This document shows positions 17,217 through 32,373 of a stretch of 64,000 bases of DNA, one piece after another. Under the pieces are notes generated by a model. The model was not told the DNA's origin and ran no database searches. It was given only the letters and a program-made list of their open reading frames with translations. Location: assembly GCA_049971295.1 (NCBI GenBank), contig JBMFLH010000002.1, positions 15,240 to 79,239 of the forward strand, written 5' to 3'. Source of the DNA: Candidatus Ratteibacteria bacterium (GTDB lineage: Bacteria > Ratteibacteria > UBA8468 > B48-G9 > DTJG01). Numbering within the stretch: position 1 is the first letter of the stretch; each line of letters opens with the position of its first letter. Position numbers and translations under genes: made by a program.

Positions 17217-18169
17217 TACTGAAAATGAAACGGTTGATAAGCATTTTCATTAAAGTATTCGTGAGTGGTTTTTTTATATTCCTTATTACCAGAAAAATTG
17301 ATATTTCACAGATGCTTGAAATTTTGCGAAATGTGAATATCCCATTTTTCATAATCATCATTCTGATTAATTATGCGGTGACTTTTTTTATGGCTCTTAG
17401 ATGGTACTTTATTCTGGATGAGTTCAGAAAAAAAATGCCGTTTGTTAAAGTGTGGCAATTATCTCTTATCGGAATGTATTTTAATATTATTTTACCAACT
17501 GGAGCAGGTGGAGATGCCGTCAAAATTTTTTATATTACCAGAAATCAGGAAGAAAAATTGAAACTTGGTACATCTGTCATTTTTGACCGATTTATTGGCT
17601 CGTCGTCTATAATTTTTATGGCGATACTCAGTTTGTTATATTATCAAGGGCACCTGCCTCAAAAATTGAAAATTACCCTTGTATTTCTTTTTATTCTTGC
17701 GTTGTTTATATGGCTTTTGATCGTATGGGATAAACTTGCAATTTTGACGGGCAAGATTTTTCCTCGCAGAATCAGAGAAAAATTAAAGGCATTTTATAAT
17801 CATCTCAGGGATTATGGGATTAATCGCAGGGTTTTTACCAGCGCTTTTCTGGCAAGCATGGCTGTCCAGGTACTTTCTATCTATGTTCAGTATTTATGTG
17901 TAATGCTCATTTCTCACGTGGATAAATCACCTGTTCCTTTTCCTTTGTTCTTTATATTCATTCCTATTATATGGCTTTCAGCGATGGTTCCTTCACTCGG
18001 CGGCCTTGGAATAAGGGAATATGGGTATCTCTTTTTCTTTAAAGTTTATATCGGGCAGGAAGCAGCAATTGCAATGGCGCTGATTAATCTGTTTCTGATC
18101 TTTTCTCAGGCATTTCTCGGGGGATTGATTTTTTTGTTTCTTCGTCCAGGTCGCCAAGATCACAAATAA
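17213..18169 (+). CDS. Integral membrane protein of the flippase-like / lysylphosphatidylglycerol-synthase TM-domain family (UPF0104)
   Basis: Multi-pass hydrophobic profile with PTGAGGDAVKIFYI and LGGLGIREYGYLFFF motifs. Confidence 0.5.
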   Translation: MILKMKRLISIFIKVFVSGFFIFLITRKIDISQMLEILRNVNIPFFIIIILINYAVTFFMALRWYFILDEFRKKMPFVKVWQLSLIGMYFNIILPTGAGGDAVKIFYITRNQEEKLKLGTSVIFDRFIGSSSIIFMAILSLLYYQGHLPQKLKITLVFLFILALFIWLLIVWDKLAILTGKIFPRRIREKLKAFYNHLRDYGINRRVFTSAFLASMAVQVLSIYVQYLCVMLISHVDKSPVPFPLFFIFIPIIWLSAMVPSLGGLGIREYGYLFFFKVYIGQEAAIAMALINLFLIFSQAFLGGLIFLFLRPGRQDHK

Positions 18170-19102
18170 ATGTTTTTCCCAGAATTTTGTTTACTTCATC
18201 AGGACATGGAAAATCTGTAAACGATCTTGCTGCTTTTGCTGTTGCTGATGCAACCGCAAATCTTAAGGATTCTTTGAAATTACCTGTTTTTGAAAAATAC
18301 AAAACGAATCCAGCAAGAAGTACATCACCGCATCCCACAGAGCCAGGGTTATTGACGATAGGTCCTTTTGCGTAGAAAAAACCATCTTTTGAAAATCCAA
18401 TAGCTCCTTTGTTTCCCATTGTGACGATAATAAATGAAATCCCTGATTTTAGCAACTTTTCCCCTATTTGACATAAATGTTCAAAATTTAGAATTTGTTT
18501 TGATATCAGTCGTTCAAGTTCCCAGATATTGGGCTTTATTAAATCAGGTTTTTCGCCGACGCCATAACGAAGAAATTCTCCATCTGTGTCAAGCCCAATA
18601 AACGTATTTTTTCCTCTTCGACGGATTTCTCTTATTATTCTAGCATATAAATTTTCAGGCATTCCGGGAGGTAAACTACCAGAAATAAGAATCCATTTTG
18701 CACTGTTAAAATCGATGCTGAATATTAATTCAAGTATTTTTTCCAAGGACTGTTCTTTTACGATGGGACCAGGTTCATTGAATCGTAAAACTGTACCGTT
18801 TTCAAAAAAAAATTGTAGTTTTCTCTGGTTTCTCCGTCTATATCAATTATAAAGTCAGTAGAAATGCGTGAGTTCTTTAGTAGATTCTTGAAGCGGATTC
18901 CATTAAAACCCCCTGCAATGCCAATTGATTGTACACTTACATTAAACTGGCCAAGAAATTTTGCAATATTAATCGCCTTACCACCGGCAGACACAACCTT
19001 TTTACTGATTCTATTAATATCGTCTGATTTGAATTCCTTAACATAACAATTAACGTCAAGACAAGGATTCAAACCAATTGTAATAACATGATTGTGTTGC
19101 AT
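18084..19102 (-). pseudogene. PfkB-family sugar kinase (1-phosphofructokinase/tagatose-6-P kinase-like), reading frame interrupted at a homopolymer
   Basis: The N-terminal 114-aa ORF (18758..19102: ITIGLNPCLDVN, SAGGKAINIA) and the C-terminal ORF (18084..18746: GNKGAIGF, VGCGDVLLAGF GAGD-type motif) lie in different frames. The frames switch at the A9 run at 18804-18812. Splicing the two gives a continuous PfkB sequence ...GETRENYNFF(F)ENGTVLRFNEPGPIVKEQSLEKILEL... Confidence 0.6.
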
Positions 19103-19111
19103 AGAACTTTT

Positions 19112-19279
19112 TTACACAGATTGAGTTCGGTATTTTTTAATTTTTTTGCGACGTCTCAACTGGCTGGGTTTTTCATAGAACTCACGTTTTTTGATTTCCC
19201 TGATGATTCCTTCTTTTTCAACCTCGCGTTTAAATTGTTTGAAAATTTTTTCAAAGTGTTCGTGGTGTTGTCTTTCCAC
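19112..19279 (-). CDS. rpsU: 30S ribosomal protein S21
   Basis: [39 protein letters not shown] matches the S21 core (ALRRFKR...REFYEKPS). This ORF is not in the six-frame track. The only canonical start after the upstream TAG is GTG at 19279, and the conserved N-terminal residues (DSISV) lie upstream of that GTG. Confidence 0.75.
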
Positions 19280-19300
19280 AGAGATACTGTCACCCCCTCC

Positions 19301-19465
19301 CTAATACCTGTCTATTTCAAACAGACGGGCACCGCAATGTTTGCATTTCTTTTCGTGGGGATAATATCCATCAACGATAAAACAAACTCTGCAGCGAATG
19401 TTAACTCTTTCGACAAACAACTGAGTTGTTTTTGCTTCTGTTCTGGATTTTTCTTTTTCGCTCAT
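19301..19465 (-). CDS. 54-aa zinc-ribbon protein (CxxC...CxxC) in frame with, and immediately upstream of, rpsU
   Basis: Sequence MSEKEKSRTEAKTTQLFVERVNIRCRVCFIVDGYYPHEKKCKHCGARLFEIDRY ending in TAG at 19303..19301. It is in the same frame as S21 and followed by a GGGDS linker-like peptide. Not in the six-frame track. Confidence 0.45.
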   Translation of the reverse strand: MSEKEKSRTEAKTTQLFVERVNIRCRVCFIVDGYYPHEKKCKHCGARLFEIDRY

Positions 19466-19479
19466 CTGTTACCCATTGT

Positions 19480-20298
19480 TTAAAGTCTTATTATAATGCT
19501 TTCAAAAAGATCTGTCAAGAAAGGTTCTGCGGCTTCAGCTGTTGCCAGGATTTCTTCAAATGTTGTGACCTTTAAGGCATCAGGCAGGCACATATCACTG
19601 ATTACAGAGGCACCGAAAACTTTTAAACCCGCATGCACTGCTGCAATCACTTCAATTACTGTAGACATGCAAACCATATCTGCGCCGATTGCCCTAAGGA
19701 ATCTGTATTCTGCTTTTGTTTCAAGATTTGGGCCGGTTAATCCTACAAGAACGCCCTTTTTGACTGGAATTTTTTTCTCAAGGGCGATATTTTCGGCAAG
19801 TTCAATAATTTCAATATCATACACATTTGACATATCAGGAAATCTTACACCAATTTCTTCATAATTGGGTCCTATCAATGGATTATGCCCGGTAAGATTA
19901 ATATGGTCAGTAATAATCACAATGTTTCCGGGTTTAAACATGGGGTTCATGCCGCCTGCGGCATTGGATTCAAGAAGAATTTTAACTCCAAGAAACTTTA
20001 AAACTCTGATGGGAAGAGCGATTTCCTGTGCTGTATAGCCTTCATAAAGGTGAAATCTCCCCTGGAAGGCAACAATGCTTTTATTTCCGATTGCTCCAAA
20101 GATGAGATTCCCTGCATGACCTTCAACAGTAGAAACAGGAAAATTGGGGATAGAATCGTATGGAACGATTTTCTCTATGTTGATTCTATTTGTGAATTTA
20201 CCAAGTCCTGATCCAAGAATAATCCCTATTTCTGGCTTTGTCTGTGTGATTGTTTTCAGAAATGCGACAGTTTCTTTAATCCTGGATAGTTCATTCAT
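19480..20298 (-). CDS. Purine nucleoside phosphorylase / 5'-methylthioadenosine phosphorylase family (PNP family 2)
   Basis: GRFHLYEGY, GGMNP and phosphate-binding motifs, with an AGGAGGGA RBS. Confidence 0.8.
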   Translation of the reverse strand: MNELSRIKETVAFLKTITQTKPEIGIILGSGLGKFTNRINIEKIVPYDSIPNFPVSTVEGHAGNLIFGAIGNKSIVAFQGRFHLYEGYTAQEIALPIRVLKFLGVKILLESNAAGGMNPMFKPGNIVIITDHINLTGHNPLIGPNYEEIGVRFPDMSNVYDIEIIELAENIALEKKIPVKKGVLVGLTGPNLETKAEYRFLRAIGADMVCMSTVIEVIAAVHAGLKVFGASVISDMCLPDALKVTTFEEILATAEAAEPFLTDLFESIIIRL

Positions 20299-20316
20299 AT
20301 TCCCTCCTGATATGTG

Positions 20317-21123
20317 TTATTTTGACAACTCGATTGCTCTTTTTTCAGCTGCTTCAAAAGCCGCTTCCAGAGTTTTATCAAGACGATTTTCCGTTAATTT
20401 GGCAATTCCCGATATGGTTGTCCCTGCTGGAGAACACACTCGTTCCTTTAGAACCGATGGTTTTTCCTTAGATTTTGAAAGCATCGTTCCTGTACCTTCA
20501 AAAAGGGTGGCAACAACATTTCTTGAAATGTCTTCAGGAAGATTTTTCTTTATTAGAAATTCGTATATCAGTTCAGCAACATAAAAGAGAAATCCCGGTC
20601 CGCTACCAGCAACTGCCGTTACAAGAAACATTTCATTTTCCCTGACAGGAAAACAAAATGAAATTTTTGAAAAAATCTCCACAACTTCTTTTATGACGAA
20701 ATCCGGTGCATTTTCAAAACAGTAGCCAATAATTCCTTTTCCATATTCAACTGCAAGATTTGGCATCATTCTAAAAATGGGTATCTTTTTCCCAAGACTT
20801 TTATACAATGACTCTATTGTGATACCTGCAGCAACGCTTATGAGCACTGAAGAATCATCGAGAAATGGAGAAATACTGAGGCATAATTCAGAAATGTCTT
20901 TTGGTTTGACAGCAATTATGATAAACCGCGATTCTTTCACAAGGGTATCGGACGGCAGAGTCTGAATATGCAGTTGCTCCTGACATCTATTTGTTTTTGA
21001 TACATCTATATCGTGAGCACAGATCAATGCAGCAGGAATATTTCCATACTTTATTAGCCCGTTGATAAGCGCATAACCAATATTACCACATCCAATGATT
21101 CCAAAAGTATATTTTTTGCACAT
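20317..21123 (-). CDS. proC: Pyrroline-5-carboxylate reductase
   Basis: N-terminal GIIGCGNIG Rossmann motif and a C-terminal P5CR dimerization domain ([10 protein letters not shown]). Start at the ATG at 21123; the track M at 21126 is a TTG. Confidence 0.8.
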
Positions 21124-21863
21124 CAACCTGCTTCCTCACCCTCCACTTCTCCCACTTTAATTTGCAGGTTCTCTCGGTCTTCAATTCTTTCAATCATGCC
21201 ATCTCTAATCCATATCACTCGATCCGACACATCAAGCATTTTCAAATCATGTGTTGCTGTGATAATACTTACTTCTTTATTTTTGTTCATTTCCTTCAAA
21301 AGGTGGATAATTTCCTTACCTGTTTTCAGGTCAAGATTGCCTGTTGGTTCATCAGCGAGAATAATTGCTGGATCATTCGCAAGCGCTCTCGCGATTGCCA
21401 CACGTTGCTGCTGTCCACCTGACAATTCAAATGGCTTGTGATGCAATCGTGCGCCAAGCCCAACTGTTTCAAGTAAGCCCTTTGCTTTGTTCATTGCTTC
21501 ATCATTTTCCATTCCACCAAAAATCATTGGAAGCATCACATTTTCGAGAGCTGTCATGACCGGTATCAAATTAAATGTTTGAAAAATGTACCCAATTTTT
21601 CTGCATCTTAACCATGCCAGTTCATACGCGTCCAGTTGGGCGATATCAACCTCATCAATATAAACCTTTCCTTCTGTTGGCTTATCAAGACCACCTATCA
21701 TGTTGAATAGTGTTGTTTTTCCGCTTCCAGAAGGTCCCATGATTGATATGTATTCGCCTCTATAAATTTCAATGTCAATACCCTTCAAAACATGGAGCGG
21801 AATTTTCCCGAGTAAAAATGTCTTTTTCAATCCTATCGTCCTCACAATTGCTTCTTTTGGCAT
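21123..21863 (-). CDS. ABC transporter ATP-binding protein (LolD/MacB/FtsE-type ATPase)
   Basis: Walker [11 protein letters not shown], signature [15 protein letters not shown], Walker [12 protein letters not shown]. Start at MPKEAIV (21863) after an AAAGGAG RBS. The upstream extension in the track overlaps the permease. Confidence 0.85.
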
Positions 21864-21876
21864 AGTAGTCTCCTTT

Positions 21877-22530
21877 TTAAACCTCCCTGCGGATTGCTTC
21901 AGCTGGTTCCATTTTTGCCGAAACATAGGCAGGGTAGATGGCTCCAATAACAGATATCGCAATCCCCAGAATGATACTGAAGACAGAATATTTTAGCAAT
22001 AAGCCAGCAGGGAATATACTCCATATCAGTCCTTTATATCTTAAAATATACATGATGAATGTGGCAGTACCACCAAATATCACTCCTATTATTGAACCTA
22101 CCAATCCCTGCATTGATGACTCAAGAAGAAAAAGTTCGACGATAAATTTATCCAGGGCACCAAGACACTTCATTGTTCCAATTTCTTTGGACCTTTCAGT
22201 TACAGCCATGAGCATTGCATTAACAATCCCAACGACACAGACGAGCAGTGAAAGAGAAACCAACCATATCTGACGAGTTCTCATTTCTTCCAGATTCTGC
22301 TGAAGAGCGATTTTTATATTTTCTGGTCCTTTTTCCAGAATTCCTGTTACAAATGCATTACTACTCAATATGGACATCAGAAATGCTATACCGAGCACAA
22401 TGGACATTGTCACTATGATGGACCTGCCAAATCTGATTCTTATGCTACGAATACTCATATGAAACGCATGGCTGAGTGGTAATGTAAGCTGTCTATGAAT
22501 TTTTTTTGTTTCCGGGACCTCTGTTGCCAT
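21877..22530 (-). CDS. Minimal FtsX-like ABC transporter permease (217 aa, lacking the large periplasmic domain)
   Basis: Four predicted TM segments with the FtsX-like C-terminal motif region. AGGAGAGA RBS, directly upstream of the ATPase gene. Confidence 0.55.
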   Translation of the reverse strand: MATEVPETKKIHRQLTLPLSHAFHMSIRSIRIRFGRSIIVTMSIVLGIAFLMSILSSNAFVTGILEKGPENIKIALQQNLEEMRTRQIWLVSLSLLVCVVGIVNAMLMAVTERSKEIGTMKCLGALDKFIVELFLLESSMQGLVGSIIGVIFGGTATFIMYILRYKGLIWSIFPAGLLLKYSVFSIILGIAISVIGAIYPAYVSAKMEPAEAIRREV

Positions 22531-22566
22531 TTTCTCTCCTTTTTATTAATTTTAACTTAATTTATT

Positions 22567-23475
22567 TTATTCGTAAAGAAAACACATCACAAGATGGTCA
22601 TTTTCTTTCTCTTTTAATTCAGGAGATTGATGAAAACATTTTTCCATCCTGAATATACATCTATGAAGGAAGGGACATCCATAGTCGTACTTCTGTTCTT
22701 CCTCAACAATTTTTGCAGATTCTGGATTCCACAGTAATTGCGTGTATGGATGGAGTGGATTATTTACTATCTGTTCTACCGAACCCTGTTCGACGATGTG
22801 GCCCCTGTACATCACCACAATCCTATCACAAAATTCTGCTATAACCTTAAGATTATGTGAAATTAAAACATAGGTGATGCCAAAACTTTTTTTTAATTCC
22901 TCAAGTAATGTCAGAATATGAATTTCAGTCATTGCATCAAGACTCCCTGTTGGTTCATCGGCAATGATACATTCAGGATTTCCTACCAGCGCCCTTGCAA
23001 TTGCTAACCTTTGTCTCTCTCCCCCACTCATCTGATGAGGATATTTATCTTTGTATTCAGGTGATAGTCCAACATGCGAAAGTATGTCATCAACTTTTCC
23101 AGGAATTTTTGTTTCAGTCAGCATGGCTTCTTTTATCACCCTTTCAACAGTTGACCGTGGATTCAAAGATTTGTACGGGTTCTGAAAAATTATTCTTACA
23201 CGATTTCTGAAAAAGCGAAGTTTTCTATCAGGCAATTTTGTGATTTCATTGCCTCTATAATAAATAAGGCCTGAGTCAGGTTTGACCAGCAGTGTCAGTG
23301 TTTTTGCCAGTGTTGTTTTCCCTGATCCTGATTCTCCAACGATACCAATATTTACATTGTGATTTATAATCAGAGAGATGTGATTGATAGCCGTAAGTTT
23401 TCTCTTGTTTATACCAAGAGAGTCCTTGATTATAAAATTTTTACTGATTTTTTCACACCTGAGAATTTCTTCCAT
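22567..23475 (-). CDS. oppF: Oligopeptide/dipeptide ABC transporter ATP-binding protein
   Basis: Walker [18 protein letters not shown], and the C-terminal oligopeptide_F extension (HPYT). Confidence 0.8.
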   Translation of the reverse strand: MEEILRCEKISKNFIIKDSLGINKRKLTAINHISLIINHNVNIGIVGESGSGKTTLAKTLTLLVKPDSGLIYYRGNEITKLPDRKLRFFRNRVRIIFQNPYKSLNPRSTVERVIKEAMLTETKIPGKVDDILSHVGLSPEYKDKYPHQMSGGERQRLAIARALVGNPECIIADEPTGSLDAMTEIHILTLLEELKKSFGITYVLISHNLKVIAEFCDRIVVMYRGHIVEQGSVEQIVNNPLHPYTQLLWNPESAKIVEEEQKYDYGCPFLHRCIFRMEKCFHQSPELKEKENDHLVMCFLYE

Positions 23476-30027: not shown

Positions 30028-30491
30028 AATTTTTTTAGCATTGGTATTTCGTCACATCTTGGAAATTTCGGACAGTTAATACAATCAATCCAAATTTTGT
30101 GTGGAAGTTTTGTCTTTTCTATTCGAACAAAACCAAACTTTTCAAAAAATTCGGGAACATATGTAAGCACAAAAATTTTCTTAATACCAATTTTTTCTGC
30201 CTCTTTTATCAGCGTTTCGACCAATAGCGAACCATATCCCTTTTTTTGCTTTGAATTTTTAATGGCAAGGGATCTGATTTCACCCAGATCTTTCCATACA
30301 ATTTTTAATGCAGCACAGCCAATGACATTTCTTCTGGCATCGCTGATGACCCAGAAATTTCTCAAGTTTTCAAATATCTGATTGATTGAAACAGGCAGCA
30401 TTTTTCCTTTTTTCGCCTGAACGTTTATGAGATTTTTTATGGAATACGCGTCGTCGATTACAGCTGGTCTAATGTCAATCTTCATATACAA
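30024..30491 (-). CDS. GNAT-family N-acetyltransferase (possibly an amino-acid N-acetyltransferase)
   Basis: Acetyl-CoA-binding motif KQKKGYGSLLVETLIKEA, about 150 aa, in the arginine-biosynthesis neighbourhood. Confidence 0.6.
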   Translation of the reverse strand: MYMKIDIRPAVIDDAYSIKNLINVQAKKGKMLPVSINQIFENLRNFWVISDARRNVIGCAALKIVWKDLGEIRSLAIKNSKQKKGYGSLLVETLIKEAEKIGIKKIFVLTYVPEFFEKFGFVRIEKTKLPHKIWIDCINCPKFPRCDEIPMLKKL

Positions 30492-31089
30492 TCACTCTCC
30501 TTCCTTCAACAACAACTTTATTTTCAGAAATGAGTTTTATCGCTATGGGATAAATAATATGTTCTTTTTCCTGAATTCTTTTATGCAAACTTTCTGGAGT
30601 ATCATTACTGAGTACTGGAACAACCGCCTGAAGTATGATAGGACCGGTATCAATATCTTCTTCAACAAAGTGGACAGTACATCCAGTAAATTTCACTCCA
30701 TAGTCAAGAGCTTGTTTCCACGCCTCAAGCCCGCGAAAAGAAGGCAGTAAAGATGGATGAATATTAATAATTTTCCCCTGATATGCATTGAAAAATTCTT
30801 TTTTAATGACCCTCATAAAACCAGCCAGGCAAACCAGTTCCACGTGGTGTTCTTTCAAACATTCAACATATTTTTTTTCCTGGGCCTGGGCAAGGAAAGT
30901 TTTGTATTTTCCTGGTTCTATGTATGTGGCAGGGATTTTTTCAGTCCGTGCGATTTCCAGAGCGTATGCCTGTGGATTATCGCTAATGACCACTCCTATT
31001 TTAACATTCAAAAAACCCGTTTTAACCTGTTCTATAATCGCTTGAAGATTGCTTCCTTTCCCTGAGGCGAGAACACCTATGGTAAACAT
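30475..31089 (-). CDS. purN: Phosphoribosylglycinamide formyltransferase
   Basis: IGVLASGKGSNLQAI and formyl-transferase motifs HPSLLPSFRG. Confidence 0.85.
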   Translation of the reverse strand: MFTIGVLASGKGSNLQAIIEQVKTGFLNVKIGVVISDNPQAYALEIARTEKIPATYIEPGKYKTFLAQAQEKKYVECLKEHHVELVCLAGFMRVIKKEFFNAYQGKIINIHPSLLPSFRGLEAWKQALDYGVKFTGCTVHFVEEDIDTGPIILQAVVPVLSNDTPESLHKRIQEKEHIIYPIAIKLISENKVVVEGRRVIVYED

Positions 31090-31403
31090 TTTTCAATCTC
31101 CTTTAAGTATCGCAGAATTTTCTTTAACAACACTGATGAATTCTGTTTATCCTTTTTCTGTGTATGATAGATATCATGGAATTTTTTTTTAACACCCAAA
31201 ATTTTGTATCCGTTCTGATACAGCAGTTTTTGGATTTGTTTGATTTTTTCAACATCCTTTGCAGAATATATTCTTCTTCCAGCAGGATCCCTCTGAATTT
31301 TCAAAAAAGAAAACTGCTTCTCCCAGTATCTTAAAATATGCGTGCCGACCCCTGTAATTTCAGAAACTTCGCTGATACTATAATAACGATTATGTTCATT
31401 CAT
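31077..31403 (-). CDS. MerR-family helix-turn-helix transcriptional regulator (short)
   Basis: YSISEVSEITGVGTHILRYWEKQ HTH segment typical of MerR-type regulators. Confidence 0.55.
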   Translation of the reverse strand: MNEHNRYYSISEVSEITGVGTHILRYWEKQFSFLKIQRDPAGRRIYSAKDVEKIKQIQKLLYQNGYKILGVKKKFHDIYHTQKKDKQNSSVLLKKILRYLKEIEKCLP

Positions 31404-32373
31404 TTTTCAATTCTCTTGTCATAAGTTTTTCAATCTCATCAGATGGTTTTGCATTTTCATGTACAATTCGATATATGGCTCCAGCAATAGGAATTTCTAT
31501 ATTATGTGTTTTAGCCATTATCAGGATGGCTTTTGATGCAGATATTCCTTCAACAACCATCCTGGTTTGAGCAAGAAACTGCTGTTTCTTATTCAGCGCT
31601 ATTGCCTGACCAAATCTGCGATTTCTGCTGCTGGGGCTGAATGATGTTGTGATCAGGTCCCCAATTCCGGCAAGGCCCAGAAATGTTTTTTCTTTAGCAC
31701 CAAAAATTCTTCCAAATCTTTTCATTTCTTCTACACTTCTTGTTAGATAAGATGCCTTTGCGTTATCACCCAATTTGAGCCCATCAATAATTCCCGAGCC
31801 AATCGCGATAACATTTTTATAGCCGCCACATATTTCAACGCCACAAACGTCGTCACTTGTATATAATCTCAAAACCTTTGAGGAAAACATATTTTGTATC
31901 TCTCTTGCCATATTCATATCATCAGAAGCCACCACTGCCGCAGTTGGCTTTCCGGCAGCAACCTCAGAAGCAATTGTTGGCCCTGAAATAACCGCAAATT
32001 TACACATGCCTATTTCATTATACAATATTTCCGACATTCTCATTCCTGTTTCTGGTTCAAGTCCCTTGGTGGCAATCAGAATTTTCTGCCTTTTATAAAA
32101 TGGTTTTAAGTTTCTGAGTGTTTCTCTGAAATATTGAGAAGGTACAACAATTATGAGTAAACTATTATTGCATACAGTTTGAGTGTTACTTGTAACTGTC
32201 ACATGGTCTGGTATCTTGAACCCAGGAAGAAATTCAATATTTTCTTTCATAGATGAAAGCACAGTAGCGTATTCAGGAAACTTTTCCCAGAGTGTTACCT
32301 CAAATTTAGTAGAAAGTATTATTGATAGGGCAGTACCCCAGCCACCTGCGCCGACAATGCCTATTTTTTCCAT
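31396..32373 (-). CDS. gpsA: NAD(P)H-dependent glycerol-3-phosphate dehydrogenase
   Basis: KIGIVGAGGWGTAL Rossmann motif and a GpsA C-terminal domain. Confidence 0.85.
   Translation of the reverse strand: MEKIGIVGAGGWGTALSIILSTKFEVTLWEKFPEYATVLSSMKENIEFLPGFKIPDHVTVTSNTQTVCNNSLLIIVVPSQYFRETLRNLKPFYKRQKILIATKGLEPETGMRMSEILYNEIGMCKFAVISGPTIASEVAAGKPTAAVVASDDMNMAREIQNMFSSKVLRLYTSDDVCGVEICGGYKNVIAIGSGIIDGLKLGDNAKASYLTRSVEEMKRFGRIFGAKEKTFLGLAGIGDLITTSFSPSSRNRRFGQAIALNKKQQFLAQTRMVVEGISASKAILIMAKTHNIEIPIAGAIYRIVHENAKPSDEIEKLMTRELKNE

Follow-up and report, generated by a model that had tools for sequence, protein, structure and literature searches.

A small zinc-ribbon gene and rpsU share a reading frame across a stop codon in Candidatus Ratteibacteria, very probably as two separate cistrons

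Layout of the zinc-ribbon and rpsU locus

The stretch of DNA analysed here (the window) is 64,000 nucleotides long, has a G+C content of 38% and comes from a Candidatus Ratteibacteria MAG. On its minus strand, a small gene encoding a zinc-ribbon protein is followed directly by rpsU, the gene for ribosomal protein bS21. The features of the locus are given below from 5' to 3'.

19490..19518, minus strand: putative sigma-70-type promoter, 12/12 match to the consensus
19301..19465, minus strand: small zinc-ribbon gene, 54 aa, from the ATG at 19465 to the stop TAG at 19303..19301 (ORF and translation)
19290..19300, minus strand: extended Shine-Dalgarno (SD) sequence of rpsU, GGAGGGGGTGA, directly 3' of the TAG and previously read as a "GGG linker"
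19283..19285, minus strand: ATC, an in-frame non-canonical alternative start, used by NCBI for an identical sequence
19112..19279, minus strand: rpsU, ribosomal protein bS21, 55 aa, from the favoured start GTG at 19279 to the stop TAA at 19114..19112 (PF01165, TIGR00030)

The 54-aa product is MSEKEKSRTEAKTTQLFVERVNIRCRVCFIVDGYYPHEKKCKHCGARLFEIDRY, with the motif CxxC-x12-CxxC. After its TAG, the same frame continues with the codons GGA GGG GGT GAC AGT ATC TCT GTG GAA AGA, and the S21-like sequence begins seven codons past the TAG and runs in this shared frame to the TAA at 19114..19112. A sequence-only reading of this DNA had described the arrangement accurately: the ORFs and their translations bear out a 54-aa CxxC...CxxC ORF, a TAG and then an in-frame S21 sequence, and confirm that S21 lacks an in-frame ATG, that GTG 19279 is the first canonical start and that this GTG sits 16 nt from the GGAGG at 19300..19296. 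As its headline, that reading proposed a bS21 extended by a zinc ribbon. Such a protein, or readthrough in a ribosomal gene, would be a new ribosomal architecture if true; the evidence shows its absence, and by the sequence comparisons described below the headline is refuted. An out-of-frame GTG at 19293, which would open a 45-aa ORF, was set aside, its product not being S21-like.

The gene order PNP (purine nucleoside phosphorylase), small ORF, rpsU and pfkB is common to the 18 distinct lineages collected, with the zinc-ribbon ORF directly 5' of rpsU in every one of them. In E. coli, rpsU sits in an rpsU-dnaG-rpoD arrangement, unlike the window, where it lies downstream of a small zinc-ribbon gene.

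The putative promoter comprises TTGACA (19518..19513), a 17-nt spacer and TATAAT (19495..19490); it is located inside the last PNP codons, and 24 nt separate its -10 element from the ATG of the zinc-ribbon ORF. It is the sole 12/12 consensus match within 18000..22600. Thirteen of 15 lineages retain 11-12 of its 12 positions, at a distance of 9-33 nt from the same ATG; because the element falls within coding sequence, this conservation could partly stem from the PNP protein. The -10 element comes to within 12 nt of the ATG in L022 and to within 9 nt in L024, so near that a very short leader, or none, is suggested. The zinc-ribbon ORF has no SD sequence of its own.

Stop codon, spacer and start of rpsU among relatives

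The TAG is the same in a second NCBI assembly (GCA_049968895.1, L001), which is 100% identical across 418 aligned nt. The TAG followed by GGAGGGGGTGAC, or by a variant differing in one to two bases, was also found in L003/L014, L005-8/L015, L016, L017, L018 and L019, on JGI, ENA and NCBI contigs from different groups whose zinc-ribbon ORFs share 50-80% identity. TAG also terminates the ORF in L009 and L021; the stop is TGA in L010/L023 and L020 and TAA in L011-13, L022, L024 and L025. The zinc-ribbon ORF and S21 are in frame in 9 of the 18 lineages (seven with the 21-nt spacer, plus L022 and L031) and out of frame in the other nine. The offset is +1 in L009, where one extra G lengthens the spacer to 22 nt, as well as in L012 and L020, and +2 in L010, L021, L024 and L025; L027 and L029 are out of frame by gene coordinates. 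The seven in-frame lineages represent one inherited 21-nt spacer, and spacers of other lengths are in frame in 2 of 11 cases, where chance alone would give a prior of 1 in 3. An in-frame stop occurs 0-3 codons 5' of the S21 start in L010, L017, L020 and L024. It is a TAA directly before the GTG in L017 and L020 and a TGA three codons before the GTG in L010, so that S21 in these three lineages can only start at GTG. In none of the 18 loci does a sense codon replace the stop of the zinc-ribbon ORF or a single ORF span both genes. In relatives, the small ORF stands on its own at other spacings and S21 has a canonical start, a finding that the sequence-only reading had itself named as one that would refute its proposal.

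Read as peptide, the spacer gives GGGDSIS, GGGDCIS, EGGECTS, EGGDYSS or EGGDST* in the lineages where it is 21 nt long. Codon differences were counted over the 15 pairs of six lineages without an indel: the seven spacer codons show 5 synonymous versus 33 non-synonymous differences, the zinc-ribbon core 161 versus 101 and S21 249 versus 73. On these counts, the seven "linker" codons behave in evolution like non-coding DNA. Within the spacer, the mean pairwise nucleotide difference is 0.095 in the first 11 nt versus 0.305 in the remainder, and the GGAGGGGGTGA region agrees with the extended SD GGAGGTGA at 6-8 of 8 positions in 15/15 lineages and at 7-8 in 13 of these. The anti-SD, and with it the extended pairing with GGGGGUGA, was assumed; with the canonical 3' tail of 16S rRNA, which is absent from the window, GGAGGGGGTGA has a predicted duplex energy of -16.7 kcal/mol. 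The best and median values for the other window ORFs (n=62) are -13.9 and -4.3 kcal/mol, making the SD of rpsU the strongest. The GGGDS peptide, previously taken for an interdomain linker, is actually a Shine-Dalgarno sequence, and the locus provides a clean case of an SD that, translated as GGA GGG GGT (Gly-Gly-Gly), passes for a flexible linker.

The stop of the zinc-ribbon ORF lies 0-4 nt before the rpsU SD in 11 of 15 lineages; in L021, L022, L024, L025 and L029, 15-77 nt separate it from the SD or the S21 start, and the gap between the two genes is 30-95 nt in some lineages. The SD core precedes the start by 13 nt (GGGGG) or 16 nt (first GGAGG) in the window, by 12-14 nt in most lineages and by 19-23 nt in L021 and L025. 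The window distance exceeds the 5-8 nt that usually lie between AGGAG or GGAGG and the ATG of its other genes, a point that weighs against the favoured reading of two genes with a GTG start. A hairpin that would sequester the SD or shorten this distance was considered and rejected, as the single-sequence fold, which pairs GGGGGUG with UAUCUCU, has a z-score of only -1.13. No conserved RNA structure was found at the junction in an 11-lineage alignment (RNAalifold -1.53 kcal/mol, no covariation or compensatory pairs), and a search of Rfam for known RNA elements gave the tRNA of the window as its sole match. The zinc-ribbon ORF and rpsU are 50-65 nt apart in L021 (1675..1740), L025 (1606..1656) and L022 (1603..1660). 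The SD in L021 and L025 is GGGGGTGA or GGGGTGA, 19-23 nt before the GTG, and in L022 an inverted repeat, CCTCTTTTT...AAAAAGAGG, is located between the two genes.

The S21 sequence matches PF01165 with an E-value of 7.6e-16 and 58 bits against a cut-off of 27, and the protein starting at GTG passes the equivalog model TIGR00030 with 53 bits against 28.95, so the 55-aa product stands above both curated thresholds. It has the conserved FKxFKRxxExxG...REFYEKPS core of bS21, from which it differs in a short N-terminus and a GTG start. The sequence-only reading had held that a GTG start would delete conserved N-terminal residues; the profile matches and the short N-termini of homologues contradict this. 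The Pfam match begins at the GTG-encoded valine, at profile position 2, and the GTG protein is 2 residues shorter than the TIGR00030 model. The nearest S21 homologues begin MERHESFEKIF, MEKQHEQFEKLF, MSRNPEFEKIF or MSDFDRIF, and those of the clade start 4-8 residues before FEKIFKQF; with N-termini this short, the GTG start loses nothing conserved. The GTG is kept in 13 of 15 lineages, with TTG in L022 and ATG in L024, and S21 has a ribosome-binding site as well as a start of its own, as the extended SD is present in 15/15 lineages.

The zinc-ribbon protein and its relatives

The zinc-ribbon protein has a Lys-rich, variable N-terminus, in which an in-frame indel occurs, and a conserved core, NIRCRxCFxVDGYxxxExxCxHCGxxLFxID. 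A profile search gave 70 homologue clusters of 46-105 aa, and their alignment contains 7 invariant columns, including the four Cys, R26, Y34 and D52. Judged by this conservation, the ORF is a real conserved gene. AlphaFold predicts a two-knuckle ribbon with strands at 21-24 and 31-34 and a pLDDT of 80-87 over residues 21-54. The modelled structure places two CxxC knuckles on beta-hairpins, as in the zinc-ribbon fold.

No named family was matched at threshold: the best Pfam hit, with an E-value of 0.0018, was below the gathering score, and NCBIfam gave no match at threshold for the window protein. The best E-value was 2.9 in a sequence-profile search of the PDB and 0.35 in a Foldseek search of the PDB with the AlphaFold model, which returned generic ribbons only; the top Foldseek matches, each with an E-value above 0.3, were N-terminal domains of MCM proteins and small ribosomal proteins. 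The protein resembles small zinc-ribbon proteins such as RpoP/RPABC4 (PF03604), type-Z uS14, eL37e and Nob1 in having a ribbon of about 30 residues with four Cys after a basic tail. These names are used in automatic annotations of homologues and correspond to weak, sub-threshold matches; however, the window protein belongs to none of these families. Membership in RpoP/RPABC4 PF03604 (RPAB4), DUF5817, L37e or type-Z S14 was rejected, all scores being below the curated thresholds. The protein represents an unannotated zinc-ribbon family comprising about 70 clusters, whose linkage to rpsU is strict in Ratteibacteria and in candidate lineages related to them.

None of the 70 clusters has an S21-sized tail after the ribbon, and in the 105-aa member the ribbon lies at the C-terminus. 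A HMMER search run exhaustively over 1.84 billion representatives identified 47 proteins, again none with an S21-sized tail after the ribbon. The zinc-ribbon-extended bS21 of the earlier headline is not supported by any of the 18 loci, the 70 clusters or the 47 representatives. Longer ribbon proteins carry N-terminal extensions instead, in the form of Lys-rich tails or helical, HTH-like domains. The ribbon module NI[RE]CRxCxxVDGYxxxExxCRxCG was also observed at the C-terminus of seven proteins of 113-183 aa (P0118, P0120, P0122, P0126, P0128, P0144 and P0147), whose N-terminal parts are helical and are possibly DNA-binding domains. Its occurrence at the end of larger proteins marks the ribbon as a portable module that is not limited to the small rpsU-linked protein.

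Because of the linkage with rpsU in 18/18 lineages, a ribosome-related role is our best guess for the zinc-ribbon protein, which makes the family a reasonable candidate for a ribosome-associated factor. A more specific proposal is that it is a previously unrecognised, lineage-specific ribosome-associated protein, either partnering bS21 at the 30S platform or acting as an assembly or regulation factor. The linkage, the consensus promoter shared with rpsU and the combination of a basic tail with a zinc ribbon leave room for this proposal, which we regard as tentative and somewhat doubtful. If it is true, the extended SD with its conserved spacing of 12-14 nt could serve a bS21-sensing feedback like that of Bacteroidia.

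Readings of the junction and the downstream pfkB gene

The sequence-only reading had offered a fusion gene broken by a sequencing error, stop-codon readthrough or recoding, and two separate genes as explanations. A single fusion gene broken at 19301-19303 by a point error of sequencing or assembly is refuted; only the in-frame arrangement itself speaks for it, and the TAG is identical in the independent second NCBI assembly and recurs in six other lineages on contigs from JGI, ENA and NCBI. Orthologues with other stops and frames also argue against it. Programmed readthrough or recoding of the TAG, giving a fusion of zinc ribbon, linker and S21 as at least a minor product in the sub-clade of the window, is extremely unlikely. 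It would fit an in-frame stop between two coding regions, the TAG and in-frame 21-nt spacer without a second stop in six lineages, and the status of TAG as the rarest stop in the window, where it ends 4 of 62 long ORFs. However, the shared frame is lost in L009 through its extra G and in L020, a second stop blocks L017, and more distant orthologues have TGA or TAA stops and other frames, which refutes readthrough as a conserved feature. Unlike in known programmed readthrough, the identity of the stop, the frame and the spacer all vary here, and the downstream part is equipped with an SD and a start of its own. The excess of non-synonymous differences in the spacer gives no coding signature or protein-level constraint, no orthologue has a sense codon at the stop, and no fusion protein was found in two very large protein collections. 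Moreover, the same TAG codon terminates four other long ORFs in the window, no suppressor tRNA is found there (the sole tRNA being a tRNA-Val), and no conserved RNA structure lies 3' of the stop. None of three marks of programmed readthrough, namely a conserved stop and frame, a coding spacer and a stimulatory RNA structure, was observed. An alternative code with reassigned TAG was likewise rejected on the four TAG-terminated long ORFs among 62 and the single tRNA-Val, within the 64 kb of the window.

The zinc-ribbon ORF might also be a mere regulatory leader or uORF controlling rpsU, with a peptide that has no function of its own, as it adjoins rpsU upstream in 18/18 lineages and its stop abuts the rpsU SD in 11 of 15. 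This is very unlikely in view of the invariant columns across 70 clusters (the four Cys, R26, Y34 and D52 among them), the excess of synonymous over non-synonymous changes, the confident AlphaFold prediction of a zinc ribbon, the same ribbon module at the end of larger proteins with other N-terminal domains, and the distance of 15-77 nt between the ORF stop and the SD or S21 start in L021, L022, L024, L025 and L029. A different question is whether S21, within the same two genes, starts at ATC 19285 to give a 57-aa product (MSVERQ...), as annotated by NCBI. The ATC lies 7 nt past the GGGGG core, a normal spacing; its product has exactly the length of TIGR00030, of which the GTG product falls 2 residues short; the NCBI gene call for the identical sequence uses it (L001 1694..1696); and it is kept in the window, L003, L005, L009 and L016. 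However, it is missing from L017 (ACC TAA), L018 (ACT), L019 (TCC), L010 and L012, where GTG is the sole option at 12-14 nt, L024 has an ATG start at 12 nt that is immediately preceded by a stop, and JGI gene calls use GTG (55 aa). In addition, the bacteria studied initiate only very weakly at ATC. We therefore consider an ATC start unlikely and favour GTG 19279, with 55 aa, with good confidence on the comparative evidence; the ATC is probably part of the 5' spacer of rpsU. The textbook spacing of the ATC and NCBI's choice mean that the exact start codon is not proven, and conservation resolves the annotation conflict between ATC (57 aa, NCBI) and GTG (55 aa) in favour of the latter. A Logan call (P0005, 81 aa) and a JGI call (P0012, 66 aa) stretch S21 into the other frame of the zinc-ribbon ORF. 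As NCBI, JGI and Logan start calls differ, public S21 entries of the clade are inconsistent at the N-terminus.

The arrangement that we favour is very probably a two-gene operon, in which the zinc-ribbon gene is followed by rpsU as a separate cistron. It corresponds to the third explanation of the earlier reading, in which the GGAGG past the TAG is the ribosome-binding site for the GTG start, and this explanation is supported. Since the "GGG linker" is the ribosome-binding site of S21, the shared frame would be a coincidence between separate genes. The length of the 21-nt spacer in the sub-clade of the window appears to be happenstance that puts two genes in one frame, without a fusion protein. 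The two genes most likely make up a single bicistronic unit that is strongly transcribed, with transcription most likely starting at the sigma-70 promoter (19518..19490) in the 3' end of the purine nucleoside phosphorylase gene. The first cistron would yield the 54-aa basic zinc-ribbon protein from a short leader without an SD and terminate at the TAG at 19303..19301. The GGAGGGGGTGA past the stop may then recruit or retain ribosomes for the rpsU start at GTG 19279, giving the 55-aa bS21, possibly aided by ribosomes fresh from termination 0-4 nt upstream. The two genes resemble translationally coupled cistrons in the placement of the stop 0-4 nt before the next SD in 11 of 15 lineages, in their common strand and in probably having one promoter; however, stop and start in the window do not overlap and are 21 nt apart. 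We regard them as an adjacent-cistron pair as in an ordinary ribosomal-protein operon, for which promoter use and translational coupling are inferred from the DNA.

A further resemblance is to the rpsU of Bacteroidota. An extended SD on rpsU and autoregulation by bS21 have been described in Flavobacterium johnsoniae, and in Bacteroidia almost no other gene carries an SD, the anti-SD being sequestered by bS21, bS18 and bS6 (PMC9976891, PMC13000453). The SD of the window rpsU, GGAGGGGGTGA, is similarly long and strong and has been conserved between lineages, and no other SD in the window is as strong. However, SD cores (GGAG, GAGG or AGGA at -18 to -4) precede at least 22 of the window's 62 long ORFs, and the distance of 12-14 nt from SD to start at rpsU is long. 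A genome that uses SDs this widely fails a defining feature of the Bacteroidota bS21 system, and the likeness to its autoregulation would be one of resemblance only.

Finally, the pfkB-family sugar kinase gene (18084..19102, minus strand), just 3' of rpsU, is split and may outrank the zinc-ribbon and S21 finding in interest. A TAA at 18760..18758 closes its 0-frame after 114 aa, and the remainder lies in the -1 frame, with the switch point at AAT TTT TTT TTG, a T9 run at 18812..18804. The same T9 and -1 change are found in 13 divergent lineages whose flanking sequences differ (...TTTagggat, ...TTTcccgac, ...TTTagcaat); L026 has T10 and an in-frame pfkB, and the gene is uninterrupted (320-336 aa) in L010, L024, L027, L029 and L031. 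Where other long ORFs of the window contain A/T runs of eight bases, no frameshifts were found. From these comparisons, the T9 looks like a conserved site of programmed -1 frameshifting or transcriptional slippage, not an assembly error. A review of frame transitions in prokaryotes describes Tn runs with n > 8 as slippage-prone, and pfkB is absent from its main text (PMC3711429). The only other 9-base homopolymer in the window is a T9 at 31182..31190, between the long ORFs 30475..31089 and 31396..32373.
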